Shown here piece by piece: positions 7,868-58,025 of a DNA stretch of 64,000 nt; the stretch's first letter is position 1, and each line of letters starts with the position of its first letter. This DNA comes from Kiritimatiellia bacterium. Lineage in GTDB: Bacteria; Verrucomicrobiota; Kiritimatiellia; RFP12; UBA1067. The translations under genes and the position numbers were made by a program. The stretch lies in the NCBI GenBank assembly GCA_045627925.1, contig JAZQOS010000005.1, forward strand, positions 2,900 through 66,899, read 5' to 3'. The notes beneath the pieces were generated by a model. That model was given only the letters and a program-made list of their open reading frames with translations, made no database searches and was not told the origin of the DNA.

Positions 7868-7897
7868 TTGCCCTTGTGGTCGCGGTTGTGGTATAAT
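7868..7897 (+). promoter_or_regulatory. candidate sigma70 promoter with extended -10 (TTGCCC - 18 nt - TGgTATAAT) ahead of the pseudopilin operon
   Basis: TTGCCC at 7868-7873, TG at 7889-7890, TATAAT at 7892-7897. The ATG of the first pseudopilin is at 7907, so the transcript would be nearly leaderless. Confidence 0.45.
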
Positions 7898-7906
7898 TTA
7901 GGATAT

Positions 7907-8989
7907 ATGAAAAAGGGCTTCACGCTCGTCGAGCTTCTGATTGTCGTCGTCGTCATCTCGATTTTGATGGCGATTACCTTCCGTTTGGTGGGGTTGGGCG
8001 GCGAGGCCTCCTACCGCAATACGACGATTCAGCGTCTCCAAAAACTCGAAAACTGCCTTTCAGGCTATTTCGCCGCATTCGGAAGCTATCCGCCGGTGCC
8101 AATTTATTATAAGCGTAGCGTATATGCGCGATCGGAGAATGGGGAGCAAATTGGCGGCGAGGACGGCTCGCTAAAATGGGCGAACGTGGAGCTCGCGTGT
8201 CGTGCCCAGCCGATTGCGGCGCGTTTCCCGTACGATCGCAGTTACAACGAGTATCTCGAAAACGTCTCGAAGCTCTTCGTTACGCGGTGCAATTCCAACG
8301 ATTCGCAGTACAAAGCCTACTCCAACAAGAAGGCGCTTTGGGGCGGCGGGTTTCAGCCGCTTAACAACCCCAACCAAGTTTCGGGGTGGGACTCCAAGAG
8401 CGAGTGGGCGGACGTAAAGATTTTCCAGTTTGGACTGATGAGCTTTCTTTTGCCGCGCTATCTCTTTATGGCGAACGGCCTCGAGACGGAGGATCTCGAG
8501 AACTGCCAGCAATGGACGAGCAACAACCGGCTTTCTTCCCATCCCAACACCGGTTCGCAGTTCGGAAGTTGGGAGAGCCAACTTAAAGACCATCGCCTTT
8601 TGGTGCGCGTTCCTTCTCAAGCGGTTTGCGCGCGGTGGATGCCCAATCTCGAGGGAATGGTCGATTGCACCGGCTCGCCCGTTTTCTTTGGGGTGAAGAT
8701 TTCGAGCGGCTATGGCCCGATTTCCACCGACATCGCCTCGCCTCGTCTCGACGGATTCTTCTTCGAGCAGAATCGGACGGTGCTCGACGGCATGACGGTT
8801 AGGGACGGGTGGAATTCGGAATTCTTCTATTACTCGACTCCGCCTTATCAGAATTATCGGCTTTGGAGCGCCGGCCCGAACGGGATGACCTTTCCGCCGT
8901 GGGTGTCAATTGATTCGCTCAAGAGCACCTCCGACAAGCAGACGGCTTCGAACTGGATGGCCGATGACATAATGTTCTTGAGCAATTAA
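7907..8989 (+). CDS. large pseudopilin-like protein (prepilin-type N-terminal cleavage/methylation domain)
   Basis: MKKGFTLVELLIVVVVISILMAI is a canonical class III signal (G-1, F+1, E+5). The C-terminal DGWNSEFFYYSTPP..YRLWSAGPNG resembles the GspG DPWG..Y....S.G.DG block. 360 aa. The ORF-track start at 7868 is TTG and would give an atypically long leader. Confidence 0.85.
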   Translation: MKKGFTLVELLIVVVVISILMAITFRLVGLGGEASYRNTTIQRLQKLENCLSGYFAAFGSYPPVPIYYKRSVYARSENGEQIGGEDGSLKWANVELACRAQPIAARFPYDRSYNEYLENVSKLFVTRCNSNDSQYKAYSNKKALWGGGFQPLNNPNQVSGWDSKSEWADVKIFQFGLMSFLLPRYLFMANGLETEDLENCQQWTSNNRLSSHPNTGSQFGSWESQLKDHRLLVRVPSQAVCARWMPNLEGMVDCTGSPVFFGVKISSGYGPISTDIASPRLDGFFFEQNRTVLDGMTVRDGWNSEFFYYSTPPYQNYRLWSAGPNGMTFPPWVSIDSLKSTSDKQTASNWMADDIMFLSN

Positions 8990-9000: not shown

Positions 9001-9639
9001 GTGAGAAGGGGATTTACGCTAATCGAAATGCTGGTCGTAATCGGGATTATCGCGATTCTCATCGGTGCGAGCATGGGCGGATTCTCCTACGTGACCAAGC
9101 GCGCCGAGCAGGCGCGCGGCCGCGAGCTTGTCGCTAACACGGCGACTGCGTTAAATGTTCTCTTTCAGCGTCAGTCCTATTGGCCGCCGCGTCTCTTGAA
9201 CGAGGCGCAAGGCAATGGTCGGCTTACCGCTGAGGCCGGTGCGTGTCTTGCGCGCCACAATTTGATGTCGCTTTCTTCGACCAAGATTACCAGAGACGGC
9301 GAAGATGTCTATGTCCTTTCGGGTCTCGATCGTTGCGGAATCGTTTCTCCTTGGGCAACGGAAGTTTTGAAGCGCACCGCCTCCACCGGCGGCGGGCTTT
9401 CCGCCAGAGTTCCGAGCGGGGGTACGGTCCAAGATCACCAGCTCCACTTCGCGCTCGACGAGGACGGAGACGGCATTACCGAGGCGAAGCTCGGCGCGAA
9501 GACGGTTCGGGTTCGTGCGAACGCCGTCGTCTGGTCGTGGGGGCGGAACGGCCGTGAAGACGACTACGAAGCCTCGCAAGCGGGCCGCGGCAATGCGGAC
9601 GACATTTACAGCTGGACGAGTTCTCAGGAGGTTCGCTAA
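9001..9639 (+). CDS. pseudopilin-like protein (prepilin-type N-terminal domain)
   Basis: GTG start 6 nt after the SD aaaggag. VRRGFTLIEMLVVIGIIAILIGA leader. 212 aa. Confidence 0.85.
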   Translation: MRRGFTLIEMLVVIGIIAILIGASMGGFSYVTKRAEQARGRELVANTATALNVLFQRQSYWPPRLLNEAQGNGRLTAEAGACLARHNLMSLSSTKITRDGEDVYVLSGLDRCGIVSPWATEVLKRTASTGGGLSARVPSGGTVQDHQLHFALDEDGDGITEAKLGAKTVRVRANAVVWSWGRNGREDDYEASQAGRGNADDIYSWTSSQEVR

Positions 9640-10262
9640 TGCGGCGGCGCGGTTTTACGCTCGTCGAACTGATGATGGTGATCGCGGTAATCGCGGTCTT
9701 GATGACGATTGTGACGACCGCTTCGCTGGGCGCGATTCGCTCCTCGAGGACGAAGCGCGCGGACGCGATGCTCATTGCCCTGCAGGCCTCGATCGCGACT
9801 TATCGCGCGGCGAATTCTGCTGGCGAGTGGCCGGGCGCGCTGGAGAATTACGCGGAGAACGCGGAGAGCGCAGTTTTGAGCGAATCTGACGCGCAGAACG
9901 TCTTTCGGATTATCGTTCAGAAATCGACCGGCAAGAACGGTACGATTCTTCCGCTCATCGATCCGCACGGCCTTTTCGTCGCGCCCGAAGGCGTCGAGGA
10001 TGGCAAGGGCACGGGGCTTTCGTACGACGAGGCGATTCGTCAGGACTCGCGCCACCAAAAGCTCACGACCGACCGTATGGTCTTCGGCTATCAGGGCGTG
10101 AAGACCGGTAAGTTCCACCGCTTCAACATCGTCTATCACGCCGAGACCGATATGGTTACCGTTCACAAGTGCTGTCACGAGTGTCTGACGAAGAACGGTA
10201 CTTGCAGCAAGAACGGCCAAAACAACAAGTGCGAGAAGTGCCACCGCTACGAACAGGAATGA
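9639..10262 (+). CDS. pseudopilin-like protein with a C-terminal CxxC...CxxC tail
   Basis: MRRRGFTLVELMMVIAVIAVLMTIV leader. TAATG overlap with the previous gene. The tail is VHKCCHECLTKNGTCSKNGQNNKCEKCHRYEQE. Confidence 0.85.
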   Translation: MRRRGFTLVELMMVIAVIAVLMTIVTTASLGAIRSSRTKRADAMLIALQASIATYRAANSAGEWPGALENYAENAESAVLSESDAQNVFRIIVQKSTGKNGTILPLIDPHGLFVAPEGVEDGKGTGLSYDEAIRQDSRHQKLTTDRMVFGYQGVKTGKFHRFNIVYHAETDMVTVHKCCHECLTKNGTCSKNGQNNKCEKCHRYEQE

Positions 10263-11062
10263 AAAAGGGTTTTACCTTAGTTGAACTATTGCTGGTCATG
10301 GGCCTTATGGCGCTCATGGGCGCGATGGCGATTGGCGGTTATGCGGCGATTACTCGCGGCATGTCCGATCGCGCGGCGATTGACGCGGCGAAAACGGTTG
10401 CCGAGGCCGCGCAACAACGCGCGAACATCGACCAGGCGAAGACCTATCTTTATCTCTTTAACGAAGTGGACAAGATTGATTCCGATATGTCGCCCGGCGT
10501 CGTTTCGGGCGTCATCATCGCGGTTCGTCCGGTCGGGCGGATATCCGCCGTGCCTGAAGGCGGGTTTTACGTCGACGAGTTTGGCGATCTCGACGAGACT
10601 TATCGTGCGCTGGACGATGAAAGTAAAGAAATGACCGAAAGCGAGAAAGAGGAGAGCGCGGTGCCGATTCGGCTTTATAGCATTCCCCAAAGGACCTACG
10701 CGTCGGTGCTTGAAGGCGTCGAGAAGGCGAATGGGCTTGTGGACGGCGATTTGGAGGATGGCTCGACCATCGATGTTACCGACGCCATGTACGGCTTTCG
10801 AAAAGTGGATGGCGACGCGGAGTTTAAGCCCGGCGACCAGTATGGTCAGGAGTTCGCGGTGATGCGCTTACCGCCGAACTACACGTTTTCCCAGAACGTG
10901 ACCATGAAGAGCGTGAACGATCTCGGTCAGACGAAGGTCGATGTAATCGAGGTCAATCCCGGCGACGCTTCCGCGCCTTCGGTGCAGGTATTCGTGCGTC
11001 GCCCGAACGGCGTTTTCGAGTCCATCGGTTCTACTTCGCAAACCAAGGACGGCAAGCAATGA
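10259..11062 (+). CDS. pseudopilin-like protein (prepilin-type N-terminal domain)
   Basis: The ATG at 10259 overlaps the upstream stop (ATGA). MKKGFTLVELLLVMGLMALMGAMA leader. 267 aa. Confidence 0.85.
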   Translation: MKKGFTLVELLLVMGLMALMGAMAIGGYAAITRGMSDRAAIDAAKTVAEAAQQRANIDQAKTYLYLFNEVDKIDSDMSPGVVSGVIIAVRPVGRISAVPEGGFYVDEFGDLDETYRALDDESKEMTESEKEESAVPIRLYSIPQRTYASVLEGVEKANGLVDGDLEDGSTIDVTDAMYGFRKVDGDAEFKPGDQYGQEFAVMRLPPNYTFSQNVTMKSVNDLGQTKVDVIEVNPGDASAPSVQVFVRRPNGVFESIGSTSQTKDGKQ

Positions 11063-11619
11063 GACGCGGTTTTACTTTGATGGAGGTGAATCTCGCCATG
11101 TTTATCATGGCGGTGGGGACGCTCGGGCTGGTGAGTCTCTACACTTTCGGCTATCGCGAAAACCAACAGTCAGTCGAGGATGTCCAGGCGGCGGCGATTG
11201 CCGAGATGAATATGAACGCGATGGCGGCGGCGCTTTCCTCGACCAATATGACCTGGGAGTCGTGGAAGAGTCTCGGACAGCTTCCCCGAGATGGTTGGGG
11301 GAAGTACGCGGGCGATGGTACCAATTCCGGGATTAGTGACAACGCGGGTACGGGAAGCCTGAATCCGCTTTCCGATCCGAGTAGCGAGGCGCGGAGCGTT
11401 TTCGACGCGGTCATGAGCGCAGCCGGCGGTGCGAACGGCCAGTTCAGCGACCAAGGGCTTTGCGTCGGCATCGTCCTTACTCCCGATAATGCCACCAATC
11501 CTCGGATGTACACGATTGCGGTTCGATGCGGCAAGCGGGCGGCGACGCTCGTCTATCAGCCGCTCTACTACACCGCGGTCTATTTCCAGGGACTCCCAAA
11601 GGAGGCTCAGGCGCAATGA
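11059..11619 (+). CDS. minor pseudopilin-like protein (possibly GspI-like)
   Basis: MRRGFTLMEVNLAMFIMAVGTLGLVSLY leader. ATGA overlap. 186 aa. Confidence 0.8.
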   Translation: MRRGFTLMEVNLAMFIMAVGTLGLVSLYTFGYRENQQSVEDVQAAAIAEMNMNAMAAALSSTNMTWESWKSLGQLPRDGWGKYAGDGTNSGISDNAGTGSLNPLSDPSSEARSVFDAVMSAAGGANGQFSDQGLCVGIVLTPDNATNPRMYTIAVRCGKRAATLVYQPLYYTAVYFQGLPKEAQAQ

Positions 11620-12092
11620 AGAAACTGAAAAAAGGTTTCACGCTCCTGGAGATCCTAGTCGCGACGATGCTGCTGGCGATGCTGGTGACGATTCTCACTA
11701 TGATCTTCAACCAGTCCTCGATCGCTTGGACGGTTGGAACCGCCTCGGTCGTCGGTCTTGGCGACGCCAGGGAAAAGATTTCCCAATACTCCATCGCCGC
11801 CGAAAACGCGATTGTCCGCTCCGATGGCAACGTCGTGAACGTCGTTTCGGTTTGGGACGATTCCGGCAGCGGAATTCGCCAGGGCGACGCGCGTACGCTC
11901 TCGAATAATTCCACCGGGGTATCCATCCAGTCGAGCGATATTAGCGATCCTTTTAATGCCTCGTCGATTTCGATTGGGAGTGCGGCGTCGGCGGGGCGCG
12001 ACAGCTATGTTGTCGGCGTTACTTCCAAGGGAGCGAACGAAAGCGACGTTTGGGACGACATCACCACGATGCCCGAGGAGGTGGTGAAGTGA
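11616..12092 (+). CDS. minor pseudopilin-like protein (possibly GspH/J-like)
   Basis: The ATG at 11616 overlaps the upstream stop. MKKLKKGFTLLEILVATMLLAMLVTIL leader. 158 aa. Confidence 0.8.
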   Translation: MKKLKKGFTLLEILVATMLLAMLVTILTMIFNQSSIAWTVGTASVVGLGDAREKISQYSIAAENAIVRSDGNVVNVVSVWDDSGSGIRQGDARTLSNNSTGVSIQSSDISDPFNASSISIGSAASAGRDSYVVGVTSKGANESDVWDDITTMPEEVVK

Positions 12093-12535
12093 GGAAGGGC
12101 TTTACGCTAATCGAGCTTTTGGTGGTAGTCGCGATGATCCTCATTCTCGCGGGCGCGATGACGACGAGCATCGTTAACGCCCAGCGCCGTTCGCGGATTT
12201 CCCGCGCCGAGACCGAGACCAGAGAAATCACCAACGCGATTCTCGCTTTTGCGAACTATGCCGAAACCGGCGACTTGCAGGGCCACGAAATGGAAGACGC
12301 CGAGGCCGAGGAAGGCAAGCTCGGCTTCATCCTCGGCAAGGAGACGAGCCGCGGCGAGCCAGTGCCCGTTCTCTACAACGCCGCGCTCAGGAATGGTAAG
12401 ATTCTCGATCCGTGGGGTCGGCCTTATCGGATTACGATTAGGCGCGGCGAGCGGGTTTCGCCGCCCGGGATTCCCAATATGCAGATTCAGCTTTTCTATC
12501 CCAATTGGCATCGACTTTCGGAGGCCGAACGATGA
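12089..12535 (+). CDS. GspG-like major pseudopilin
   Basis: The GTG at 12089 overlaps the upstream stop (GTGA). VRKGFTLIELLVVVAMILILAGAM leader. ILDPWGRPYRI is the characteristic GspG DPWG-x-PY block. 148 aa. Confidence 0.8.
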   Translation: MRKGFTLIELLVVVAMILILAGAMTTSIVNAQRRSRISRAETETREITNAILAFANYAETGDLQGHEMEDAEAEEGKLGFILGKETSRGEPVPVLYNAALRNGKILDPWGRPYRITIRRGERVSPPGIPNMQIQLFYPNWHRLSEAER

Positions 12536-15432
12536 AGCGAATTTCCTCGCACAAGGGTAGCGCGCTTTTGATCGTCCTCGGGATGCTCGCGTTTATGGTC
12601 GTTTCGGCGGTGGCGTTTTCGATGTTCATGCGCCAAAGCCGCCTGCCGTCGAGCTTCCTTCGCCAACAGCTTACCTCCGCCCAGCTCGTGAAGGCGGGTC
12701 TCGCGGAGGCGATGACGCGCATCGATTCGGCGATTGGCGATGATCCCGCGCCGGGCGTCGGGAACTCCACCGGTCGAAACTACTGGCGCAATCGCGTCTA
12801 TATGGGCGGCGCGGGCGAATCGAGCGCGGGAGACACGGTTTCGACAATGCCGCTCGAAGGGCTCGCGTATCTTCCGCCTCCGCTCATCAATACCGTTCGC
12901 CACTGGGCGCGACGTTCCAGTACGGCGGTTTGGGACGCGCTCGGCTACGACGCGGGGCGTTACGCGTTCACCGCGATTGACGTTTCCGACTATTTCGATT
13001 TGAATCGCGTCCACGCGGGACTTATGCGCGATAGCTCGCCTTCGAACCGCATTTCGATTGCGAGCGTCTTTATGGACGACAAGGGCAACTTCGACGCCGA
13101 GCGCGCCGAGGCGTTCGAGAAATTCATCGAGAACGTCAACAAGGACACTTTCAAAACGCGCCTCGTTTCGCTCGCCGACTACAACCTTGCGCTGCATCGC
13201 CAGGGTCAGGCGACTGGCTTTGAAAGTCCGTTCTGCAAGTACTTCGAGAGCGGCACGGGCGATGGCATATTCTACGGCGAGGGCGACGAGGATTCAATCA
13301 AGAAGCAAACCTTCGTCACCGATTCGTGGTATCCCGATCTCACGGCCGCAACCAACACGACGAAAGTCGTCTTGACCGACGAGGACGGACAGCCGTTTGC
13401 CGACGCGACGCTCGACGAGCGCGTCGGCGTCGACGCCATCGGTGCGAGCAAGACCAAGGCGTACGCCAAGATGCGCGAACACATGAACGTTGCCGAATCG
13501 CTCGCGCTCAAGGACTATCTTGATGTGGACGACACGCCTTCGGCGCTCGCGTGGCCGACGATGGAGCGTACGCCGATGCTCGTCGCGTTGCAGGCGGCCG
13601 TCGACGGGGCGACGCTTAACGCCAAGTTGACTCCGACGGTGGTGAGCGAGGACGCCCAAACCGGAATCGCCCGAAAGAAGTGGTCGCTGACCGACATCGG
13701 CGGCGAGATTTTGATTTCGGGCGGTGCGGTCTATCCCTTCAAGCGTTCCTCGGCGATGGGGAACCCCGGCTCCTACGACTGCGAAGTGCTCGTCAAGGCG
13801 TTCTTCACCGATGCGTCGGCGGTGGCGTCGAATTTTTCGCGTACGCGCCTAAGCGGATTTAATCTCCATCCCGACAAGAGCGAGTGGGGTCAGTCGGGGA
13901 CTCGGCACAGCGACAACGGATACTGGTACGCGACCGCGAAGGGCAGCGCGAAGGTTTCCAAGTCGCCAATCGACGAAGAGGACGCGAAGATCGAAATCGA
14001 CTTCAATAATCTCAACTTCTCGCTCAGCAACGAGTCGTGGGATGTTTACGGCATTCGATATTCGACGCTCGATCCGAGCCAGTGCGAATTCGACGCCGGA
14101 GTGATGGAGCATCCGCTCGAATACCTCAAGAGCGACGGCTCGAGAGGAAATTTGCGCGATCTCGCCTCGGCGAACGGACCGATCTCGCTCAAGCTCCACT
14201 TCATGCTCTGGGTTCGCATCACCGAGGGCGGTCGTACGGTCGATATGTTCCCCGCGACGTTCGCGGACGACGCGACCTACAACGGCATCACTTCTTCGCT
14301 CGACGGCTATTCGCTCGGCGAGCCGAGTCAGAAGCCGGTGGTGCCGATCGGCGATGGCATCAAGCTAGATTACGATCCCGCGTCCTTCACGTCCCAAGCG
14401 GGCAACGTCTCGCCGACGGTCGAAGGCACGGCGAACTTGAACATTGTCTGCAACGATCCGCGCTACAACTGGGCGCCGGAGGATTGGTATTCGGTCGAGA
14501 GCGGCGGCGGCTACGACGGTTGGAAGGCGAATATCCAACGCTTCGACGGCACTCGCCCCGCCGACATCTTTCAGTTCGTCGCCAACCAGGGATATTTGCA
14601 GTCGATGGGCGAGCTCCAGTTCCTGCCGCTGGTGCGCAACGGCTATAATGACTTCAACGGCGATGAACTGGGCGGTAGCTTCTTCACTGGTGTAAATCGC
14701 TACGACGGTAAGCCGTTCGCCGAGCGTACTTCGGTTGGCGCGCTCGCCAACCGCTCGTATATGTGGAGATCGCGCGACCTCTTCGGCAAGCACCGCCCGA
14801 CGAGCGACGCGGACGATCCGTATATGTGGGACATTCTCGATTCGGTCGGCGGCACTGCGATTAGCCCCTACGCGAAGTCGGATACGATTATGGCCGCGCT
14901 CGTCAACACGCCTTACGACTGGATCGTCGCTTCCGAGAACGACAAGGACGATCTCAAATTCGGCGCGACGCTTTCCGAGGGACTCGACTACTGCTTCAAC
15001 GACCAGTCGTCCGAGGCGCCGCTCGATTGGGAGGACTTGAAGACGATTGCGAATAATTTGAGCGCAAAGCTCCGTTCGAGCGACGACTGGGAGCGCGACT
15101 GGAGCGAGTGGAGTGAATGGGGCGAAGACGGCGGCGCGTTCTTCGGCGCAAGCCCCGAGCATTTCCACGACGTCGACCGGAAGTTCCTCTTCGGCTACTG
15201 GCGCAATTGCTTCGCCAATCGTCAGCAGCTCTTCCTCGTTTTCGTTCGCGCCGAGCCCTCGGTTATGGGCGGAGCGTCCGCGGGTCACACCCCGGCGCAG
15301 CTCGGAGCGCGTGCGGTCGCGCTCGTTTGGCGCGAGCCGGTTTCCTCGATTGAGGCGAGCGGTTCCTCCGAAGAAGGCACGGCGGCGAAGCCCCATCGGA
15401 TGCGAATTCTCTTTTATCATCAATTCAACTGA
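12532..15432 (+). CDS. giant GspK-like minor pseudopilin (966 aa)
   Basis: The ATG at 12532 overlaps the upstream stop (ATGA). The N-terminus MKRISSHKGSALLIVLGMLAFMVVSAVAFSMFMRQSR matches the GspK-type G-[SA]-ALL-x-VL leader that lacks Glu+5. It is about three times the usual GspK length. Confidence 0.7.
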   Translation: MKRISSHKGSALLIVLGMLAFMVVSAVAFSMFMRQSRLPSSFLRQQLTSAQLVKAGLAEAMTRIDSAIGDDPAPGVGNSTGRNYWRNRVYMGGAGESSAGDTVSTMPLEGLAYLPPPLINTVRHWARRSSTAVWDALGYDAGRYAFTAIDVSDYFDLNRVHAGLMRDSSPSNRISIASVFMDDKGNFDAERAEAFEKFIENVNKDTFKTRLVSLADYNLALHRQGQATGFESPFCKYFESGTGDGIFYGEGDEDSIKKQTFVTDSWYPDLTAATNTTKVVLTDEDGQPFADATLDERVGVDAIGASKTKAYAKMREHMNVAESLALKDYLDVDDTPSALAWPTMERTPMLVALQAAVDGATLNAKLTPTVVSEDAQTGIARKKWSLTDIGGEILISGGAVYPFKRSSAMGNPGSYDCEVLVKAFFTDASAVASNFSRTRLSGFNLHPDKSEWGQSGTRHSDNGYWYATAKGSAKVSKSPIDEEDAKIEIDFNNLNFSLSNESWDVYGIRYSTLDPSQCEFDAGVMEHPLEYLKSDGSRGNLRDLASANGPISLKLHFMLWVRITEGGRTVDMFPATFADDATYNGITSSLDGYSLGEPSQKPVVPIGDGIKLDYDPASFTSQAGNVSPTVEGTANLNIVCNDPRYNWAPEDWYSVESGGGYDGWKANIQRFDGTRPADIFQFVANQGYLQSMGELQFLPLVRNGYNDFNGDELGGSFFTGVNRYDGKPFAERTSVGALANRSYMWRSRDLFGKHRPTSDADDPYMWDILDSVGGTAISPYAKSDTIMAALVNTPYDWIVASENDKDDLKFGATLSEGLDYCFNDQSSEAPLDWEDLKTIANNLSAKLRSSDDWERDWSEWSEWGEDGGAFFGASPEHFHDVDRKFLFGYWRNCFANRQQLFLVFVRAEPSVMGGASAGHTPAQLGARAVALVWREPVSSIEASGSSEEGTAAKPHRMRILFYHQFN

Positions 15433-16348: not shown

Positions 16349-16367
16349 AAATTTTTTATTTTCCCCG

Positions 16368-16397
16368 TTGACAAGGAAAACAAAAATATGTTATCAT
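16368..16397 (+). promoter_or_regulatory. strong sigma70-type promoter (TTGACA - 18 nt - TGtTATCAT)
   Basis: Consensus -35 TTGACA at 16368-16373. Extended -10 with TG at 16389-16390 and TATCAT at 16392-16397. It sits in the only large AT-rich intergenic gap of the window. Confidence 0.7.
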
Positions 16398-16403
16398 ACG
16401 CTC

Positions 16404-17335: not shown

Positions 17336-17343
17336 TTCCAAAA

Positions 17344-17371
17344 TACACCATTTACCTAAGGCAATGGTGTA
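17344..17371 (+). terminator. first hairpin after the 16601 gene (9-bp stem)
   Basis: TACACCATT (17344-17352) pairs with AATGGTGTA (17363-17371). 10-nt loop. Confidence 0.45.
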
Positions 17372-50394: not shown

Positions 50395-51093
50395 ATGAAG
50401 AAGTTGATGGTAGGCGCGGTAGTGGCGATGGCGGCGATGGCGACATTGGCGGCGACCCGCGGCAAGCAAAAGGCAATGGCGGGCAATGACGAAATGGAGA
50501 CGACGGGCAAGGCGGCGAAGATTCTCGTCGAACAGGTCCAACTCGGTCAGGGCGCGCTTGCGATGGCGCCGAACATCAACGGACTCAAAGAATTCTTCAA
50601 GAAGCCGCGCCAGTGGATCGTCCTCAAGACCAAGTACACTACTTTCGGCACCGACGAATCGCGCTTCCTTGATCAGCTTACCTTTACTTGGCACGTCCTC
50701 TTGGAAACCAAGACCGCGAAGGAGAACAAGGGCAATCGCGAAGGTCTTTCGCCCTACAGCTACTTCACGACGACCGTTACCTATTTCAACATCCCGGCCG
50801 GCTCCCACGGAGCGTCGGTGGTGTTGCCGCCGTCGTATCTTGAGCGCTACGGCGAGCCCAAGGCGGTCGGACTTGAAATTTCCAATGAGAAGGGCGATAC
50901 CTTGGGCGGAGATTGCTGGAGCGAGATTAAGGGTATCGAGACGGGGACGAAGTTCTGGGAAGACGCGCAAATCATGAATGCCAAGACCGAAGACGGCAAC
51001 CCCATGATTGAGCGCCGTCAGGGTCTCGTCGATCGCTCCAAGACGATTTGGGGTCTCGTTTGCCCGGACGACTACGAGGCGACGATCCAGTAA
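50395..51093 (+). CDS. secreted hypothetical protein, first gene of the pilus-like operon (positional equivalent of Akkermansia Amuc_1102)
   Basis: 232 aa. Signal-like N-terminus MKKLMVGAVVAMAAMATLAA. SD gaggt upstream. The function call rests on position only. Confidence 0.6.
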   Translation: MKKLMVGAVVAMAAMATLAATRGKQKAMAGNDEMETTGKAAKILVEQVQLGQGALAMAPNINGLKEFFKKPRQWIVLKTKYTTFGTDESRFLDQLTFTWHVLLETKTAKENKGNREGLSPYSYFTTTVTYFNIPAGSHGASVVLPPSYLERYGEPKAVGLEISNEKGDTLGGDCWSEIKGIETGTKFWEDAQIMNAKTEDGNPMIERRQGLVDRSKTIWGLVCPDDYEATIQ

Positions 51094-51111: not shown

Positions 51112-52716
51112 ATGGCCAAGACAATTCAGACTCTCAACATCGGCGCGGCGAACGTCGCGCTCGCGGAGTACGAGCTCGGCGCGAAAGGGGCGGTAAAACT
51201 CCTTAAATACGGCATCGCCGAACTCGCTTCGCCGCTCGACGGCGGCAACGTCGAAACCATTCTCGCGCCCGCCTTGCGTGAAATCATCGGCGCGAAGGGT
51301 TTTAAGCCCGGCAAGCTCGCGCTTGCGATTTCGGGGCAGATGACCTTTCCGAAGTTCGCGTCGATTCCGATGGTCGGCGGCGCGGAGAAGTTTGAACAGC
51401 TCGTTCGTTACGAAATCGAGCAGGGCATTCCCTTCCCGATCGACGAGATGGTCTGCGACCGGCAGGTGCTCGGTGACGCCGAGAACGGCGACAAGTCGGT
51501 GATGATTGTCGCGGCCAAGGTCGATCAGATTGAGGCGATTACCTCGGCATTGATCGGACTCGGCTTCAGCCCCGATGTTGTGGACGTTTCGCCGCTCGCG
51601 ATTACCAACGCGCTTAAGTTCAATCGTCCCGACGAGTCGGAGGCGTGCACCATCGTTCTCGACATTGGCGCGCGCACGACTTCGCTCGTGATCGTCGAGG
51701 GCGATAAGCTCTACAACCGTTCGATTCCGATTGCGGGCAATGCGATTACCAAGGAGATCTCCGGCGCGCTCGGTTGTTCGCTCGAAGAGGCGGAGGCCCT
51801 GAAGCGCGAGAAGGGTTATGTCGCCGAGGGCGGTGTTACCGAGGACGCCGACGAAGTCGTTGATCGCGTCTCCAAGGCGTGCCGGGCGGTGATGACGCGG
51901 CTCCACGCCGAGATTTCCCGGTCGATTAACTTCTATCGCAGCCAGCAGCACGGCAACGCCCCGGTCAAGCTCTATCTTACCGGCGGTAGCGCCCTCTTGC
52001 CGCAAATCGACCAGTTCTTCGCCGGGTCGTTGGGTATCGAAGTCGAATACCTCAATCCTTTTGAAAAGACGGCTTTCGGCGCCATCGACGTTTCCGAGCT
52101 TGAGAATACGAGCCCGATTATCGCCTCGACGGTCGGCCTCGCCTTGCACGTGGCGGGAGCGGCGCGCTTCGCCATCAACCTTCTGCCGCCGTCGATTGTC
52201 GCGGATCGCGCCGAGCGCGCCCGCATTCCGTATCTTGTCGCCGGGGGAGCGATGATTGCGCTCGCGCTTATCGCGGTAATGATGACCTACCGCCGCGAGG
52301 CGACGATCATCGCCGCGCAACGCGACGCGGTGGCGACGACGGTAAGCGCCTTGGGCGCGGTCGATCGCGAAATCACCGCGGCCGCCAAGGAACTCGACGC
52401 GGCCAAGTCCGACGCGACCGCGCTTAAGGACTTGATGCTTTCGCGTTCGGCGACGGTGCAACGGCTCAACGCGGTTCGGGAGGCGCTTTTGCCGGGGATG
52501 TGGATTGAAAAGTGGTCGAGCGACGGCCGAATCACGATTCGCTCGTGGAGCGATCGCGTCAAGGGCGCGAACGGCAAGACCGTTTCCGAAACGGTGGTCG
52601 AGAAGCTCAAAGGCAAGTCCGCGATCGATCCGACGAGCATCAAAATCGTCGAGCAGGTGCGGCTCGGCAAGGGCGGCGAACTCGAACAGTTCACGGTGGA
52701 GGTGAAGCTCAAATGA
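51112..52716 (+). CDS. PilM-PilN fusion protein (actin-like ATPase-fold PilM, TM segment, PilN-like domain; Amuc_1101-type)
   Basis: The PilM pattern runs from LNIGAANVALAEYE to VLDIGARTTSLVIVEGDKLYNRSIPIAGNAITKEISGALGCSLEEAEALKREKG. The PilN signature INLLP follows at about 52174-52188, then the TM IPYLVAGGAMIALALIAVMMTY and a periplasmic domain. Confidence 0.8.
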   Translation: MAKTIQTLNIGAANVALAEYELGAKGAVKLLKYGIAELASPLDGGNVETILAPALREIIGAKGFKPGKLALAISGQMTFPKFASIPMVGGAEKFEQLVRYEIEQGIPFPIDEMVCDRQVLGDAENGDKSVMIVAAKVDQIEAITSALIGLGFSPDVVDVSPLAITNALKFNRPDESEACTIVLDIGARTTSLVIVEGDKLYNRSIPIAGNAITKEISGALGCSLEEAEALKREKGYVAEGGVTEDADEVVDRVSKACRAVMTRLHAEISRSINFYRSQQHGNAPVKLYLTGGSALLPQIDQFFAGSLGIEVEYLNPFEKTAFGAIDVSELENTSPIIASTVGLALHVAGAARFAINLLPPSIVADRAERARIPYLVAGGAMIALALIAVMMTYRREATIIAAQRDAVATTVSALGAVDREITAAAKELDAAKSDATALKDLMLSRSATVQRLNAVREALLPGMWIEKWSSDGRITIRSWSDRVKGANGKTVSETVVEKLKGKSAIDPTSIKIVEQVRLGKGGELEQFTVEVKLK

Positions 52717-53654
52717 CGAAGACGAAAAAACTTCTGGCGATTGTCGGCGGCGCGCTTGCGCTGATCGTCGTTGTCGCCGCTTATCTCGCCTATCGGGCCT
52801 ACGGCGAAAAGGTCGTCGCGCTCGAAGGCGACTACGAAGAGGGTACGGACGGGCTTGAAAATTGCCTTATCAAGGCGGAGCAACTCTCCAAGAAGCCCAT
52901 TTATCCGACGGCCGGCAACGTCAAGGCGCTGAAGACAGCCGCGTCGACGTTCGCGACTTGGCGCGATGAAGCGGAGCGGCTCGTCGCCGCCGGCGATCGC
53001 AAGCTCGAGCCGACCACTCCGGCGGCGTTTAAGGAGTTTTTGCGTCGCGACGCCAAGCGCATCGACGCGGAGTTCGAATATGGGCCCTTTAAGGACTACA
53101 TCAACGGCGGCGCGATGCCCGCCGAAGCGGAGCTCGGCACGTTGCAGCGCCAGTGGGACGACGTCGCTACCGTTGCTGATGCGTTGAAGGGCGCGGGCGT
53201 TGAGAAGTTCGTCTCACTCGCCATCGTCAAGGACGAAGCGGCCGCCAAGCCCGCGACTACGTCCAAGAATCGGAAGCCGGCGAGGAAGAACGCGAAAGCG
53301 GTGGAAAAGCCTACTGCCGTTCCCAAGGCCATGCGTTATGAACTTTCGTTCATCGCGCGGCCGGCGGCGCTCGTCAAGGCGCTTAACGCGCTCGCCGTTG
53401 CCGATCGGTTCGTTGTTGTCGAAAGTCTCAACTTCCAGCATGATCAGGATTCGCTCGCCACTGCCATCGCCGGCGAGAAGAAGACCGAGACGAAGTCGTC
53501 TCGTCGCGCACGTCGCGGAATCGAGGCGACGGCCGAGAGCGAAAAGCCCGCCGGCAATATCAAGGTCGCCGACCCCGTAACGGATCCGCCGTTCACGGTC
53601 AATCTTAAATTCGCCGTTTATGATTTCAATTCGCTGGAGGAGGACGCGAAATGA
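52713..53654 (+). CDS. Amuc_1100-family pilus-associated protein (PilO position)
   Basis: 313 aa. The ATG at 52713 overlaps the upstream stop (ATGA). N-terminal TM. Several blocks resemble the Akkermansia Amuc_1100 sequence as I recall it: EPTTPAAFKEFLRRD vs VPTTPTAFQNELKTF, YELSFIARPAALVKALNALA vs LEIAFQGDRESVLKAMNAIT, and FTVNLKFAVYDFNS vs VQVSLNLVHFNQ. Confidence 0.65.
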   Translation: MTKTKKLLAIVGGALALIVVVAAYLAYRAYGEKVVALEGDYEEGTDGLENCLIKAEQLSKKPIYPTAGNVKALKTAASTFATWRDEAERLVAAGDRKLEPTTPAAFKEFLRRDAKRIDAEFEYGPFKDYINGGAMPAEAELGTLQRQWDDVATVADALKGAGVEKFVSLAIVKDEAAAKPATTSKNRKPARKNAKAVEKPTAVPKAMRYELSFIARPAALVKALNALAVADRFVVVESLNFQHDQDSLATAIAGEKKTETKSSRRARRGIEATAESEKPAGNIKVADPVTDPPFTVNLKFAVYDFNSLEEDAK

Positions 53655-54745
53655 AGCAGCATTACGAATGGCTGGTGGCCGGTCTCGGAGCCTTGGCGCT
53701 AATTGGAGCGCTTGCGTTCTTCGTGCTTGCCGATGCCGCGGATGAGGAAAGCGCGGTCGCTGAGGTGAAGTTGCGCGTCGAGCGGATGAAGCCGGCGAAA
53801 ACCGAAGTAGCGGAAGAGGATATGGCGGATTTCGCCTTTGCGGTCAAGCTCGTCAAAAACCCCGCGTCGCTCGCGACCATCGCCGAGGACAAGGAGAGTT
53901 TCCTCGCGAGCGAAGTGCGCGTGAAGTGCAAAAAATGCCAAAAGGTAATCAGCGGCGATGTGAAGAAGTTTCCGAAGTGCCCTTCGTGCGGCGAGGAACA
54001 GGAAGTGGCCGTGGCCGCGATTCTCGACGCGGACAAGGACGGATTGCCCGACGACTGGGAGCGGAAATACGGTTTGAATCCGGCGAACGCTGCGGATGCC
54101 GACGAGGATAAGGACGGCGACGGCTTTACCAATCTCGAGGAATACGAGGCGAAAACCGATCCGACGGACGCAAAGAGCCACCCCGACTATCTCGATTCGC
54201 TCGCGATTACCCTCCCGCTCAAGGAGACGTATGTGCCGTTCGTGTTCCGCGAAGCACAGCAGATTCCCGCCGGTTGGCGACTCAAATTCTTCGATCCCGA
54301 CAAGCTCAACGGCTTCGGCAAGAAGGGCGTTTTGCTGATGGCGCTCGTCGGCGAGGAGATCGCCGATTCCGACAAGACCTACAAGTCGGGCTACGTCGTC
54401 AAGAACTACGAGGCCAAGACTGCGCGAGTTCCGGTTCCGGGCGCGGAGGGTCTTACGCGAGTCGCGGACGTTTCGGAGGCCACGCTGGAGCGCATCCAGG
54501 ATCACAAGATCGTCAAGTTGGTCGCCCAACCGAGCGGCAAGAACAAAACTCCGATCGACGTGCAGGCAACCTTGACCTACACGCGCGGAGAGGTTAAGAC
54601 CTTTGAGGTAATCCCCGGCTCGGAAATCGACCTTAATGGTGAGCGCTATCGGGTGCTGGCAGTAAATCCGGTCGGCGACCAGGCCGAAGTCACGTTGGAG
54701 GCAATCGCCTCCGGCAAGAAGCGTACGCTTAAAACCCTTGAATAA
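53651..54745 (+). CDS. membrane-anchored protein with a 4-Cys zinc-ribbon and TSP3-like DxDxDG repeats (Amuc_1099 position)
   Basis: 364 aa. TM WLVAGLGALALIGALAFFVL. CKKCQKVISGDVKKFPKCPSCG. DADKDGLPDDWERKYGLNPANAADADEDKDGDGFTNLEEYEAKTDPTD. ATGA overlap upstream. Confidence 0.75.
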   Translation: MKQHYEWLVAGLGALALIGALAFFVLADAADEESAVAEVKLRVERMKPAKTEVAEEDMADFAFAVKLVKNPASLATIAEDKESFLASEVRVKCKKCQKVISGDVKKFPKCPSCGEEQEVAVAAILDADKDGLPDDWERKYGLNPANAADADEDKDGDGFTNLEEYEAKTDPTDAKSHPDYLDSLAITLPLKETYVPFVFREAQQIPAGWRLKFFDPDKLNGFGKKGVLLMALVGEEIADSDKTYKSGYVVKNYEAKTARVPVPGAEGLTRVADVSEATLERIQDHKIVKLVAQPSGKNKTPIDVQATLTYTRGEVKTFEVIPGSEIDLNGERYRVLAVNPVGDQAEVTLEAIASGKKRTLKTLE

Positions 54746-54797
54746 CGAAACAATAAAGAGTATAATTGTTTTTGAAAATAAGGAGTAGGTGGTCAAT

Positions 54798-57700
54798 ATG
54801 ACGAACATCAGGAAAATTGTCGCCATTGGCGCAGTTGCGGGTGCAATCGCCGTTCCGCAGTGCACTTTCGCGCAGGACGATCTCGACGATCTATTGAAGG
54901 ATCTTGCCGAGCCGGTTGCAGCTCCGGTTGAGACTCCGGCGGCTGCGCCAGTCGCCGAGCCTGAACCCGAGCCGGTCGCTGAACCCGAACCCGCGCCAGT
55001 CGCGGAACCTGAATCCGCGCCGGTCGTTGAGCCTGCTCCGGTCGTTGTTCCGGAACCCGCTCCGGTCGTTGAGCCAACGCCAACTCCTGCGCCGGCTCCG
55101 AAAGTGGCGAGCGACCAGAAAGTCGACGATGTTTTGGGCCTTTTGGACGAATTGGCGAACGAGAGCGGCGAAGCGCCGGTTGCCGCCAATGGAAATGCAC
55201 CGGCTGTCGCCGGCGAGGTGCCCACCACCACCGAGGCGCCCAAGGCGGCGACTCCGACGCTCTCCGAAGATTCGGCGATCGTCGCCGAACTCGCGGCCAC
55301 CGAGCGGTTGCGTCGAGGAGCTCTCGACGCCCAGGCAAAGCGCGAAATCGCTGAGGCGCGAGCGGCGATGGAGAACGAGGAATTCACCGACGCGGTTCGC
55401 CACTATGGTATCGCCGCCAAGCTTTTGAACGACCGCCCCGCGATGAAGAAGTTGCGTCGTGAGTGCGATCAGGGTATCGCCGAGGGGCTTTATCGCTCGG
55501 CTTTGCAAGAAGACGAGTACGGTCGTCGCGATCGCGCGGTCAAGTTGATGGAAAAAGCCGTCGATATGCGCCACCCGAAGGCGCGCGCGATTTTGGAGGA
55601 TTGGCTCGAAGAGGGCGATCCCGCCGCGAACAAGGTCGATGTCAGCGAGCTTAAGCATCGCAAGAACGACTCGGACTACAAGACCGATCGCGACAGCATC
55701 GCCAAGCACCTTCGCCGTTCCCGCCAGTATTTGGCGCTTCGGGATATGAAGAAGGCGCTCGAAGAGGCGGAAATCGTGCTCGTCAGCGACCCTGCAAATC
55801 AGGAGGCTATTCGGCTTAAAAGGACGATTGAGCGCAAGCGCCAGACCATTTTGAAGCAGGAGCGCGAAGCGGCTCGCGAGGGCATGATTGCCGACGTCGA
55901 CGAGGCGTGGAGGCCGGTCTACGCGGTTAACGCCGCCCAGCTTCGCGAAGTCGATTCCGAGACTCGCAAGGTCGCGCTCGGAGCCGATCCGGAGAGGTCG
56001 CAGGAGCAGGAGATTATCCGTCGGATGAAGGAGATGCGCCTGCCGAATATTTCGTTCAAGCCGCCGGCGACCATCGTCGAGGCGGTGGACTCGTTCCGCC
56101 AGATGTCGAAGGACTACGATCGTCCGGATCTGCCGCCGGAGAAGCGTGGCTTTAACTTCGTGTTGCGCACTCCCCAGCCGGTTACCGTTACGCGGGGCGA
56201 GGAGAGCGAGGGCTTTGGCGGAGACGCCGAGGCGCCTTCCACGGGTCTCGCGGTAATTACTACGCTCGCCGCGAGCGATATCTCGTTCTACGACGCGTTG
56301 AAGCTCGTTTGCGATACGGTCGACTACAAGTTCGTCGTGAACGGTTCGGTGGTGATGGTGATGGCGAAGGGTGAGGCGAGTTCCGACATGGTCTCGCGCC
56401 AGTACGACGTTCAGGACGTTCTTTCCGAGCACGTCGCTTCCGCCGCCGAGGAACTTAACTCGGGCAAGGGCGGCAATCGCTTCGGCGCCAACAACCGCGC
56501 GAGCGCGAAGGACGACGAAGAGCAGCGCGATTGGAAGAACGTCTTTACCCAGCTCGGCGTCAATTGGCCGGAAGGTTCGTCGATCGTCCACATCAAGGCG
56601 CTCGGCAAGCTCTTCGTTCACAACACGCTGGAAAACCTCGCGCAGTTCGAGAAGGTTTTGGAAGCGCTCGACGCCCAGCCGAAGATGATCGAAATCGAGA
56701 CTCGCTTCGTCGAAGTTGCTCAAGAAGACCTCAACTCGCTCGGCTTCGAGTGGATTTTGAATGGTGATTACGGAATCAACCTCGGTAGCGGTCTTGCCAA
56801 GGCCCTGAACATTTCGAAAGGACACTTCCCGGCTTTACAATCTGGTGGTCCGGTAACAACCACGACGTCAACCAAAACCACGACATCTAGTCCGATTGAC
56901 GGACTGATGAATCAGAATTACTCTACTGTCACTAGTTACGAGACTTCAACCGTCGATCCGAATGCCAATTATGGACGGTGGATGAAGGGCTCGAACCCAG
57001 TATGGCAGGAGCGTCACTTGGGTATCAATGCCTTTGGAGGCTCCAGCGATTACGGCAACGGCAATCGCTATCTCTCGACGATGAGCAACCACATCTCGGG
57101 CGAGGGACGTTCGACCAACGATCAGTTTATGCGGGTTAACGCGTTCCTCGGCAGCGCCGACCTTTCGATGATTCTCCACATGCTCTCGCAGCGCAGTGAC
57201 ACTGACCTTTTGTCGGCGCCGAAGATTGTGACGAGCAACGGCCAGCAAGCGACCATCAAGGTCGTTACCGAATTCCTCTATCCGAAGGACTACGACGTTC
57301 AGCTCCAGTCTTCGAACTCCAATAGCGGCGGTTACGGTGGTAGTTCGCAGTCGTCGATTCTCGCGATTGTCGAACCGCAGAACTTTGAAATGCGTGAAGT
57401 TGGCGTTATTCTCGATGTCACGCCTTCCTACATCCAGAGCGGTAACGTGATCGAGCTCGAACTCAAGCCGCAGGTTGTCGACGAGCCGACTTGGAAGAAC
57501 TACGGCATGAAGATTCCGTTTACCGGCAATAGCTCGCTCCAGAACTTCGAGGGTATCGGCGGCATCTTCGAGGGTCTCGCCCAGTCGATTACCGCGGTCG
57601 GCGGTGGTATCAGTGATGAACTTAAGAGTTGGATTATTACGACCGAGACGGATGCGGCGAAGCAGGCGCTCGACAATTTGACCAAGTCGCAGTCGGACAA

Positions 57701-58025
57701 TATGACCTACTACGACGCGCCGATGGAACAGCCGTTCTTCCACGTCCGCTCGATCGACACCAAGGTCTACATTACCCCGGGTTCGACGGTGGTCTTGGGC
57801 GGCCTTATCACCGAGCAGCGCAAGGCGATGGACGACAAGGTTCCGTTCCTTGGAGATTTGCCGTTCATCGGCCGGCTATTCCGTAGCCACGCCGAGCAGA
57901 CGATCAAGCGTAACTTGCTGATCTTCGTAACCGGCCGCCTCATTAAGCCGACCGGACGCGAGTATCGTCCGGGCGACGAAGCCGCCGACGAGGCCGAGGT
58001 CAAGGCCGCGCCGACGGTCGAATAA
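54798..58025 (+). CDS. type II/IV secretin family outer-membrane channel (Amuc_1098-type), 1075 aa
   Basis: C-terminal secretin domain from IEIETRFVEVAQEDLNSLGF to LLSAPKIVTSNGQQATIKV and on to VPFLGDLPFIGRLFRS. Signal peptide. Pro/Ala/Glu/Val-rich spacer and a helical TPR-like N-terminal region. ATG at 54798; a GTG at 54789 is possible. Confidence 0.88.
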   Translation: MTNIRKIVAIGAVAGAIAVPQCTFAQDDLDDLLKDLAEPVAAPVETPAAAPVAEPEPEPVAEPEPAPVAEPESAPVVEPAPVVVPEPAPVVEPTPTPAPAPKVASDQKVDDVLGLLDELANESGEAPVAANGNAPAVAGEVPTTTEAPKAATPTLSEDSAIVAELAATERLRRGALDAQAKREIAEARAAMENEEFTDAVRHYGIAAKLLNDRPAMKKLRRECDQGIAEGLYRSALQEDEYGRRDRAVKLMEKAVDMRHPKARAILEDWLEEGDPAANKVDVSELKHRKNDSDYKTDRDSIAKHLRRSRQYLALRDMKKALEEAEIVLVSDPANQEAIRLKRTIERKRQTILKQEREAAREGMIADVDEAWRPVYAVNAAQLREVDSETRKVALGADPERSQEQEIIRRMKEMRLPNISFKPPATIVEAVDSFRQMSKDYDRPDLPPEKRGFNFVLRTPQPVTVTRGEESEGFGGDAEAPSTGLAVITTLAASDISFYDALKLVCDTVDYKFVVNGSVVMVMAKGEASSDMVSRQYDVQDVLSEHVASAAEELNSGKGGNRFGANNRASAKDDEEQRDWKNVFTQLGVNWPEGSSIVHIKALGKLFVHNTLENLAQFEKVLEALDAQPKMIEIETRFVEVAQEDLNSLGFEWILNGDYGINLGSGLAKALNISKGHFPALQSGGPVTTTTSTKTTTSSPIDGLMNQNYSTVTSYETSTVDPNANYGRWMKGSNPVWQERHLGINAFGGSSDYGNGNRYLSTMSNHISGEGRSTNDQFMRVNAFLGSADLSMILHMLSQRSDTDLLSAPKIVTSNGQQATIKVVTEFLYPKDYDVQLQSSNSNSGGYGGSSQSSILAIVEPQNFEMREVGVILDVTPSYIQSGNVIELELKPQVVDEPTWKNYGMKIPFTGNSSLQNFEGIGGIFEGLAQSITAVGGGISDELKSWIITTETDAAKQALDNLTKSQSDNMTYYDAPMEQPFFHVRSIDTKVYITPGSTVVLGGLITEQRKAMDDKVPFLGDLPFIGRLFRSHAEQTIKRNLLIFVTGRLIKPTGREYRPGDEAADEAEVKAAPTVE
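54909..55100 (+). repeat. degenerate tandem Pro/Ala/Glu/Val-coding repeats in the secretin N-terminus
   Basis: EPVAAPVETPAAAPVAEPEPEPVAEPEPAPVAEPESAPVVEPAPVVVPEPAPVVEPTPTPAPAP. At the DNA level these are iterated gaacc(c/t)ga(a/g)cc(c/g)g(c/t)gcc(a/g)gtcg units. Confidence 0.8.

Follow-up and report, generated by a model that had tools for sequence, protein, structure and literature searches.

The DNA examined here, a window of 64 kb from a metagenome-assembled contig of a Kiritimatiellae bacterium, was analysed in detail between positions 7868 and 58025. This stretch contains an operon of nine prepilin-type genes (pp1-pp9; block 1, module M1), a module of envelope proteins beginning with g244 (block 2a, M2), a group of giant exported proteins (block 2b, M3), the housekeeping genes ackA, pta and kdsD, and a five-gene operon (block 3, M5) corresponding to Amuc_1102-1101-1100-1099-1098, the MUL2 locus of Akkermansia muciniphila (Table 1). 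An earlier note, made from the sequence without database searches, had described the stretch as a single-strand super-locus forming one functional unit, in which a pseudopilus and a secretin would export or display the giant proteins. The gene inventory given there for 7868-58025 was correct as judged by Pfam, NCBIfam and inspection of signal peptides and lipoboxes, and profile searches of each protein agreed with its domain calls. All the island proteins listed (244, 326, 1359, 896, 2770, 136 and 3948/3943 amino acids) have a signal peptide or a lipobox, and Pfam agrees with ackA-pta-kdsD between the blocks. Two N-terminally anchored open reading frames (ORFs), of 279 (weak HEAT similarity) and 191 amino acids, were absent from the earlier list. 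The third block had been given as four genes, for PilM, Amuc_1100-like, zinc-ribbon/TSP3 and secretin proteins; these are all present, but the operon has five genes, of which the Amuc_1102-like gene is the first.

Table 1 Features of the window between the start of the pilin operon and recA (aa, amino acids; TM, transmembrane)
Feature	Position	Strand	Location or module	Description and evidence
Promoter-like site	7868-7897	+	just upstream of pp1	sigma-70-like, TTGCCC-18-TATAAT, TG
pp1	7907-8989	+	M1	prepilin-type, 360 aa, G/FTLVE; Pfam N_methyl E=3.6e-7; 59% identity to L162 orthologue
pp2-pp6	9001-9639, 9639-10262, 10259-11062, 11059-11619, 11616-12092	+	M1	five prepilin-type genes; Pfam N_methyl each
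pp7	12092-12535	+	M1	147 aa; Pfam N_methyl; TIGR01710 GspG E=3.6e-9, residues 2-116
pp8	12532-15432	+	M1	966 aa, GspK/PilX-like N-terminus without Glu5; no Pfam or NCBIfam match
pp9	15446-16348	+	M1	prepilin-type, 300 aa, A/FTLVE; Pfam N_methyl
Promoter-like site	16368-16397	+	before g244	TTGACA-18-TATCAT, 11 of 12
Structured leader, ~200 nt	16398-16600	+	before g244	-75.5 kcal/mol, z=-3.55
g244	16601-17335	+	M2 (16601-23894), start	signal peptide
Peptidyl-prolyl isomerase (PPIase)	17424-18404	+	M2	lipoprotein, 326 aa; Pfam
g1359	18401-22480	+	M2	exoprotein, 1359 aa; Thioredoxin_7, weak Calx-beta (Pfam); DsbH-like, weak (NCBIfam)
279-aa anchored protein	22499-23338	+	M2	weak HEAT; Pfam
191-aa protein	23319-23894	+	M2	N-terminally anchored; ORF
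Promoter-like site	23907-23935	+	before g896
g896	23957-26647	+	M3 (23957-47208)	896 aa, signal peptide
g2770	26607-34919	+	M3	2770 aa, Gly_rich_2; Pfam, signal peptide
s136	34955-35365	+	M3	136-aa lipoprotein; lipobox
g3948	35362/35377-47208	+	M3	3948 aa (3943 from second ATG); TSP3_bac, Laminin_G_3, weak PKD; Pfam
ackA	47218-48360	+		housekeeping; Pfam
pta	48357-49394	+		housekeeping; Pfam
kdsD-like	49391-50377	+		SIS+CBS, housekeeping; Pfam
Amuc_1102 (MUL2A)-like	50395-51093	+	M5	232 aa, signal peptide; NF042424 E=7.7e-6, below cutoff
Amuc_1101 (MUL2B)-like	51112-52716	+	M5	PilM actin-like domain; PF11104 E=8e-36; NF045709 E=4e-113
Amuc_1100-family	52713-53654	+	M5	PilO-like, N-terminal TM helix; NF038287 E=1.3e-10
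Amuc_1099-family (A1099)	53651-54745	+	M5	TM helix, CxxC...CPxC zinc ribbon, TSP3 repeats, C-terminal beta domain; NF042425
Promoter-like site	54738-54766	+	43-bp gap before secretin gene	TTGAAT-17-TATAAT
Amuc_1098-family secretin	54798-58025	+	M5	PilQ/GspD type, Pro/Glu/Ala-rich N-terminal linker; PF00263 E=3e-34; NF042912 E=6e-126
Promoter-like site	62704-62731	+	before recA

The assignment of block 3 is supported by agreement between family matches, gene order, fold and topology. Each of the five proteins has its top NCBIfam match in the Amuc family that corresponds to it, in matching gene order and on one strand. Orthologues of the Amuc_1102-like protein carry the precomputed annotation PF28178 (Amuc_1102), and homologues of the Amuc_1100-family protein carry PF28028 and the NCBI name 'Amuc_1100 family pilus-like protein [Kiritimatiellae bacterium]'. 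The Amuc_1101-like protein scored 124 bits with PF11104 and passed the cutoff of TIGR01175 (151.4 bits, cutoff 133). Its hydropathy profile predicts one TM helix at residues ~370-395 followed by a periplasmic tail of ~140 amino acids, a PilM-PilN or GspL-like architecture, and no PilN Pfam match was found in the tail at E ≤ 0.01. The secretin reached 421 bits with Amuc_1098_fam, far higher than its 139.7 bits with TIGR02517 (GspD; cutoff 351). Invariant Cys and Asp columns are found in the alignment of A1099.

The top ten Foldseek matches of an AlphaFold2 (AF2) model of the Amuc_1100 homologue (pLDDT 69.6) were to 6LAD, 6LAF and 6KNY, with E values from 2e-7 to 2e-5 and TM scores on the target of 0.59-0.66. 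The next matches were PilO structures, chain O of 3JC8 (Myxococcus PilO; E=6.5e-3, prob 0.97) and 2RJZ_A (Pseudomonas PilO; E=6.9e-3, prob 1.00), at low TM scores of 0.40-0.58 on the target. Searches of the PDB by sequence gave nothing useful for the Amuc_1100 homologue, either as a single sequence or as a 22-sequence profile, or for the Amuc_1102 homologue. Because of this family, fold and TM helix evidence, block 3 reads as PilM-(PilN-like), PilO-like, a protein in the PilP position and PilQ, together with an Amuc_1102-type subunit. The PilO-like Amuc_1100 homologue supports the locus as an assembly platform of the pilMNOPQ/gspLMCD type. Block 3 is a MUL2-type locus, already described in Akkermansia and here found in Kiritimatiellae as a new phylum-level member.

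The Amuc_1098-1102 cluster is the MUL2 locus of Akkermansia in published work (PMC13174399; PMC12418764; PMC10688800; PMC4960237; bioRxiv 10.64898/2025.12.30.696933), where it is described as required for acquiring mucin (PMC13174399; PMC12418764; bioRxiv 10.64898/2025.12.30.696933). The role in mucin or glycan use and the outer-membrane location come from Akkermansia genetics and proteomics (PMC4960237, PMC13174399, PMC12418764). PMC13174399 presents the locus as conserved in Akkermansiaceae and lists among its neighbours the secretin, dephospho-CoA kinase and rho. The window shares with Akkermansia MUL2 the five homologous genes in the order Amuc_1102, 1101, 1100, 1099, 1098, the fold of Amuc_1100 (Foldseek E=2e-7), a secretin whose N-terminal extension is long, a PilM-type protein with a membrane-spanning tail, coaE and rho following the secretin (window 54798-59986), and a locus without ATPase or platform gene. 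It differs in belonging to Kiritimatiellota, in having 15-17% identity to Amuc_1100 in the structural alignment and in NCBIfam scores that for four of the five proteins lie below the equivalog cutoffs. It also differs in that the operon is here always preceded by a gene for a lectin-like giant of 4000-7000 amino acids and by ackA-pta-kdsD, an arrangement not found reported for Akkermansia. MUL2 is central to mucin foraging and host signalling in Akkermansia, and the five-gene locus, with coaE and rho still behind it, occurs in a second phylum of the Planctomycetes-Verrucomicrobia-Chlamydiae group, in at least 72 gut/rumen species. A role in mucin acquisition and TLR2 signalling, as in Akkermansia, could be suggested here by analogy. 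A literature search on Kiritimatiellae secretion or pilus systems gave nothing relevant.

Two further observations concern proteins of this operon. The Amuc_1102-like proteins have a nearly invariant NDYExxxQ C-terminus, the last residue being Q in 72 of 76 loci (L001-L078). A 24-bp tandem repeat of 3.8 copies at 54945-55035, the sole repeat in the window scoring ≥80, encodes the secretin's N-terminal (A)PVAEPEP linker.

The operon was also compared with the pilMNOPQ operons of Pseudomonas and Myxococcus. The order PilM, bitopic PilN-like protein, PilO-like protein, small periplasmic protein, secretin is the same, the PilO fold is matched (2RJZ, 3JC8 chain O), and both lie apart from pilBCD and from the minor-pilin operon. 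In the window, however, PilM and the PilN-like part are fused, as in GspL, a zinc ribbon and TSP3 repeats are present in the protein at the PilP position, an Amuc_1102-type gene is added, and none of the proteins matches the PilN or PilP families. In type IVa pilus systems the pilMNOPQ-type and minor-pilin operons are usually apart from pilBCD, and since this separation is normal, the missing motor genes are no anomaly. That they are missing, as the earlier note had stated, was borne out: Pfam found no T2SSE, T2SSF or Peptidase_A24 domain, and thus no GspE, GspF or GspO/prepilin peptidase, on either strand of the 64 kb, every gene of the + strand being assigned. A motor gene hidden on the minus strand was ruled out, the nine long minus-strand ORFs being without Pfam match, and the GspF of a relative used as tblastn query had no match in the window even at E ≤ 10.

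The nine prepilin-type genes of block 1 were present as the earlier note had claimed, eight of them with a Pfam N_methyl match and the ninth, pp8, recognised by its hydrophobic N-terminus alone. The leader motif is G/FTL[IVLM]E in seven of the eight and A/FTLVE in pp9. The genes pp2-pp6 overlap or abut, and their order is kept in about 45 related contigs. The protein of pp7 aligned with 103 of the 134 positions of the TIGR01710 profile at 36.7 bits, below the cutoff of 88.85; as the most GspG-like member it is the candidate for the major (pseudo)pilin. The N-terminus of pp8, KG/SALLIVLG, is followed by a large, beta-rich body, and neither Pfam T2SSK nor NF037980 matched. Its AF2 model (pTM 0.71) found no analogue and no GspK match in the PDB with Foldseek (best prob 0.15); since these matches were meaningless, the ideas that pp8 is a GspK or a PilY1 protein are unsupported. 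The 874 homologues of pp8 are apparently all from Kiritimatiellae, the best besides the window's own entry having 46-49% identity. Many Trp, Pro and Asp positions of pp8 are invariant among hundreds of sequences from Kiritimatiellae, and the protein may represent a large minor pilin or tip protein of a new class.

In its run of class III signal-peptide proteins, with a small GspG-like and a large GspK-like subunit lacking Glu5, the operon resembles gspGHIJK in type II secretion systems (T2SS); gspF adjoins it in relatives and a secretin is present in the window. In contrast to the T2SS there are nine genes rather than five, none of which scores up to a Gsp equivalog cutoff, pp8 has three times GspK's size and lacks a GspK fold match, gspC, L, M, E and O are not in the window, and the secretin scores best as the Amuc_1098 family, not as GspD.

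A metagenome scan gave 80 loci (L079-L158), in about 45 of which pp1-pp9 occur in the order of the window; the nine-gene operon is a robust unit by itself. Directly upstream of pp1, 28 of 32 loci have a gene with a T2SSF domain (gspF/pilC; Pfam E=7e-61; for example L108:4073-5395). Further upstream of gspF-pp1..pp9 are trmE and a Na/H exchanger gene, and downstream of the pilin operon are TatD, thiD, gyrA, polA, recA and other genes. The closest orthologous pilin locus, L162/L163, encodes pp proteins 46-72% identical to those of the window and has the same upstream context, with rsmI, HATPase, ruvC (76%) and radical SAM (70%) genes, but after pp9 it continues with Exo_endo_phos, ACT, DUF711 and lipase genes and block 2 is not there. 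The platform gene gspF/pilC is parted from its pilin operon in the sublineage of the window and L162/L163. The position of gspF upstream of pp1 is held by ruvC-radical SAM in both, with a GerE-type response regulator in addition in L162.

These data bear on whether pp1-pp9 belong to a separate, complete T2SS or type IV pilus with its own ATPase and secretin, the proximity to MUL2 being coincidental. The position of gspF directly upstream of pp1 in 28 of 32 related loci would agree with such a system, as would the finding that the pilin operon was never within 10 kb of a MUL2-type operon in the other loci sampled. Akkermansia, moreover, has several separate pilus or pseudopilus loci (bioRxiv 10.64898/2025.12.30.696933), and MUL2 has its own candidate fibre subunit, Amuc_1102. 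However, no second secretin, GspC/L/M or ATPase gene was found beside gspF-pp1..pp9 in any locus, and MUL2 itself is without class III signal-peptide pilins. A separate, complete system for pp1-pp9 appears improbable.

The envelope module M2 is also found alone in relatives. The order g244-PPIase-g1359-HEAT recurs in L159/L160, L164, L166 and L167, and in part in L161. The module thus lies in five further genomic contexts, none of them within 10 kb of the pilin operon or MUL2: beside integrase, Abi and HipA genes (L159/L160), beside ATPases and an ABC transporter (L161), beside a reprolysin-like protein of 1562 amino acids and LpoB (L164/L165, where the MUL2 locus of the metagenome-assembled genome, MAG, is on a different contig), 5 kb downstream of a g2770-like Laminin_G_3 giant (L166), and beside a restriction-modification system and glycosyltransferases (L167). 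Because the module recurs alone in five different contexts, the folding helpers that the earlier note had tied to the giants go instead with the 1359-amino-acid protein, for which no homologue above 48% identity was found besides itself. In L166 (1-4925) the giant upstream of g244-PPIase-g1359 has 29% identity to g2770 over residues 1208-2766, and a loose, order-independent neighbourhood of M2 and a g2770-like giant may recur.

Among relatives the pilin operon and M2 lie in differing neighbourhoods, away from the MUL2-type operon, which contradicts the expectation that the three blocks are co-inherited. The single-strand arrangement itself is real, but it is not peculiar to 7868-58025: the whole 64 kb, with ~40 genes and housekeeping genes among them, is tightly packed and encoded on the + strand, and the strand is shared by the housekeeping flanks, with DHDPS, rsmI, ruvC and radical SAM genes on one side and coaE, rho, uvrA and recA on the other. 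Since the co-orientation extends into the flanking housekeeping genes, it is no evidence for a unit. Co-orientation and adjacency in one MAG window can thus mimic a 'super-locus' which comparative data split into modules.

In the two nearest relatives (A1100 90% and 66% identical) the contigs continue upstream of the MUL2-type locus for about 30 and 60 kb, and no close homologue of pp8 or g1359 from these contigs was among the protein database matches; for this reason the juxtaposition of modules in the window appears lineage-specific. The same result, and the fact that the arrangement of the window was found in no other genome sampled, would also be expected if blocks 1, 2a and 2b had been joined by an assembly chimera in the metagenome-assembled contig. 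A chimera is nevertheless very improbable. The GC content is uniform across the junctions and the cumulative GC skew climbs along the whole window, the genes are intact, tightly packed and on one strand, the junction at 16349-16600 has a plausible promoter and a leader matching that of L159, and real rearrangements around the modules are evident among the relatives.

The linkage of the last giant gene with the MUL2-type operon is of a different kind. A scan of species-representative genomes with a PilM alignment gave 72 loci (L007-L078) with PilM identities of 45-96%. As far as the lineage is named these are Kiritimatiellae-type gut/rumen MAGs, a few bins being labelled as unrelated organisms; the synteny sample is the gut clade, with non-gut Kiritimatiellota, Lentisphaerota and Akkermansia loci outside it. 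In every sufficiently long locus the order was giant, ackA, pta, kdsD, A1102, A1101, A1100, A1099, A1098, and a g3948 homologue lay directly upstream of ackA in 48 of 48 assessable species-representative loci. The giants of relatives are 4019-7154 amino acids long according to the gene calls, and the C-terminal ~1000-1900 amino acids of g3948 are colinear with them at about 32% identity, as compared with a median of 83% for ackA. On the other side of the operon, 15 of 45 loci lacked the secretin-coaE adjacency or had it interrupted, and uvrA came after rho in a minority only. Of the single-unit reading, the part that holds is the synteny of the last giant with the MUL2 operon in 48 of 48 loci; blocks 1, 2a and 3 are not co-inherited. 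The earlier note had also regarded the linkage of giant proteins with such a machine as undescribed; a giant beside MUL2 was not found reported for Akkermansia, and the Amuc_1098-1102 cluster itself was already known as MUL2. The invariant giant upstream of MUL2 in the gut clade is possibly a new association and offers a candidate partner or cargo that can be tested. Large Flg_new / Flg_new_2 repeat proteins of about 1150-1200 amino acids are encoded in some relatives between the secretin and coaE or after rho (L005:15567-19148; L003:17969-21113; also L025, L028 and L031); surface-protein genes are thus inserted recurrently on the 3' side of MUL2.

The giants have N-terminal signal peptides and matched no RTX, autotransporter, Por_Secre_tail or PEP-CTERM family in Pfam or NCBIfam. 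A weak similarity to CglD and MtsD in NCBIfam is through the TSP3 repeats. No sorting domain common to the large proteins of the window was found by BLASTP among them, only the TSP3 repeats being common to A1099 and g3948. Like SiiE, the LapA/RTX adhesins and Myxococcus CglD/MtsD, the giants have several thousand residues and are beta-rich with Ca-binding repeats; unlike such adhesins, they have N-terminal Sec signal peptides rather than C-terminal type I secretion system (T1SS) signals, there are no adjacent ABC/MFP/TolC genes in the window, and no RTX or retention-module matches were found in it. The giant orthologues upstream of ackA have a conserved last strand, F[YF][KR]V[EV][IV]EQ or similar, in 41 loci (L007-L078). 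In the window, g3948 ends in ELFYAEIVE (47180-47205) and g896 in NFFRLELRFE (26620-26644), and several further envelope proteins terminate in ...VE or ...LE. From its sequence, the conserved C-terminal strand could be a domain-closing strand or a sorting cue.

Strict linkage of giant and MUL2 could reflect real coupling, and the giant, perhaps with g896 and g2770, could serve the MUL2-type machine as dedicated cargo or as an adhesin associated with its fibre. After its export by Sec and folding in the periplasm, the pseudopilus of pp1-pp9 would push it through the Amuc_1098-type secretin or display it there. Several observations are consistent with this: a giant homologue precedes ackA-pta-kdsD-MUL2 in all 48 species, a tighter linkage than that of secretin and coaE; the gaps between giant and MUL2 are minimal and without terminator-like sites; TSP3 Ca-binding repeats are common to the giant and Amuc_1099; and the conserved C-terminal strand F[YF][KR]V.[IV].Q is a possible recognition element. 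The giants also have Sec signal peptides and no match to T1SS, type V (T5SS), type IX (T9SS) or PEP-CTERM signals, and because they match no other export signal the secretin is the only outer-membrane conduit in view. However, the T2SS cargos known are folded and compact, and a T2SS cargo of 400-700 kDa is not known. TSP3 repeats are common. The housekeeping genes ackA, pta, kdsD, coaE and rho are as syntenic with MUL2 as the giant is, and even Akkermansiaceae conserve the arrangement MUL2-secretin-coaE-rho (PMC13174399); since such housekeeping genes, coaE and rho among them, are linked equally to MUL2, the adjacency of giant and MUL2 does not imply function. No giant was found reported beside Akkermansia MUL2, for which lgt and iron-transport clusters are the neighbours named (PMC6538878, PMC12552655). 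That the giants are exported via the Amuc_1098-type secretin is conjecture, and a cargo or adhesin role of this kind seems unlikely. Still more doubtful is the specific proposal that in gut Kiritimatiellae the giant is a partner dedicated to the MUL2-type machine, encoded first in one transcription unit with it, displayed or released via the secretin or riding on the pilus, and capturing host or dietary glycans. If true, no known secretin-dependent substrate would come near it in size, and MUL2 would have a definite cargo.

On balance we lean slightly towards reading the stretch as a co-directional mosaic of separately inherited modules, of which M1 and M5 belong to one type IV filament machine. 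The mosaic would sit on the leading strand of the chromosome of a gut/rumen Kiritimatiellae bacterium and would not be a dedicated secretion super-operon. M1 would be the pilin and minor-pilin operon of a type IV filament system. M5 would supply PilM fused to a membrane-spanning PilN/GspL-like tail, the PilO-like protein, the secretin and the Amuc_1102-type subunit, with A1099 as a Ca-binding zinc-ribbon protein in the PilP position. Because each has what the other lacks, pilins on the one hand and platform and secretin on the other, M1 and M5 are probably complementary halves of one machine. The ATPase, the platform protein gspF/pilC and the prepilin peptidase would be encoded elsewhere; motor genes shared from another locus, with the pilin block and the PilM/secretin block as parts of one machine, are a reasonable part of the earlier note. 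By analogy with Akkermansia, the machine might build a short pilus-like fibre which attaches to and takes up host or dietary glycans. M2 would stand by itself as an envelope module, with a promoter and a leader of its own, and M3 would encode Sec-exported, beta-rich, Ca-binding, lectin-like giant surface proteins.

Several points weigh against this reading. There may be a second secretin, or a complete separate T2SS to which the pilin operon belongs. In the comparison of its model with the PDB by Foldseek, pp8 was without recognisable GspK or PilY1 fold. Amuc_1099 alone passes its curated NCBIfam cutoff (87 bits as against 50, E=1.3e-24), the other four proteins scoring below theirs, and the A1099 profile gave only Ca-binding and zinc-ribbon noise and nothing relevant against the PDB. 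The PilN and PilP assignments are drawn from position and topology and are accordingly putative, and the presumed function of MUL2 is extrapolated from another phylum. Finally, a fast-evolving giant is strictly retained beside MUL2 in 48 of 48 loci, with gaps of 9 bp and 17 bp in the window, which exceeds what simple mosaicism would give.

The arrangement of possible transcription signals was also considered, promoter-like sites being consensus matches only. Those matching best precede M1, M2 and M3, the secretin gene and recA, each in an intergenic gap. The only sizeable gap, of 252 bp (16349-16600), is that between pp9 and g244. The structured leader before g244 had no match in Rfam, and may act in cis as a so far undescribed regulatory leader for g244-PPIase-g1359. 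One hairpin, GTGTCCGGGCCTAGG...CCGGGC, is seen again in L159, in the leader (7560-7852) before the orthologous module. No terminator-like site was found in the intergenic gaps. Because the gaps from g896 through A1099 are only 0-62 bp, read-through from the giants into ackA-pta-kdsD-MUL2 is plausible, as is, from the gene spacing, co-transcription of the last giant with these genes.

Scans of the window gave no Rfam match and no tRNA. At 1393-3523, unrelated to the pilus genes, a secreted peptidase C39-like protein (407 amino acids) is encoded, followed by a DUF1570 protein (301 amino acids), and the pair lies upstream of a gene of the GlcNAc 2-epimerase family.

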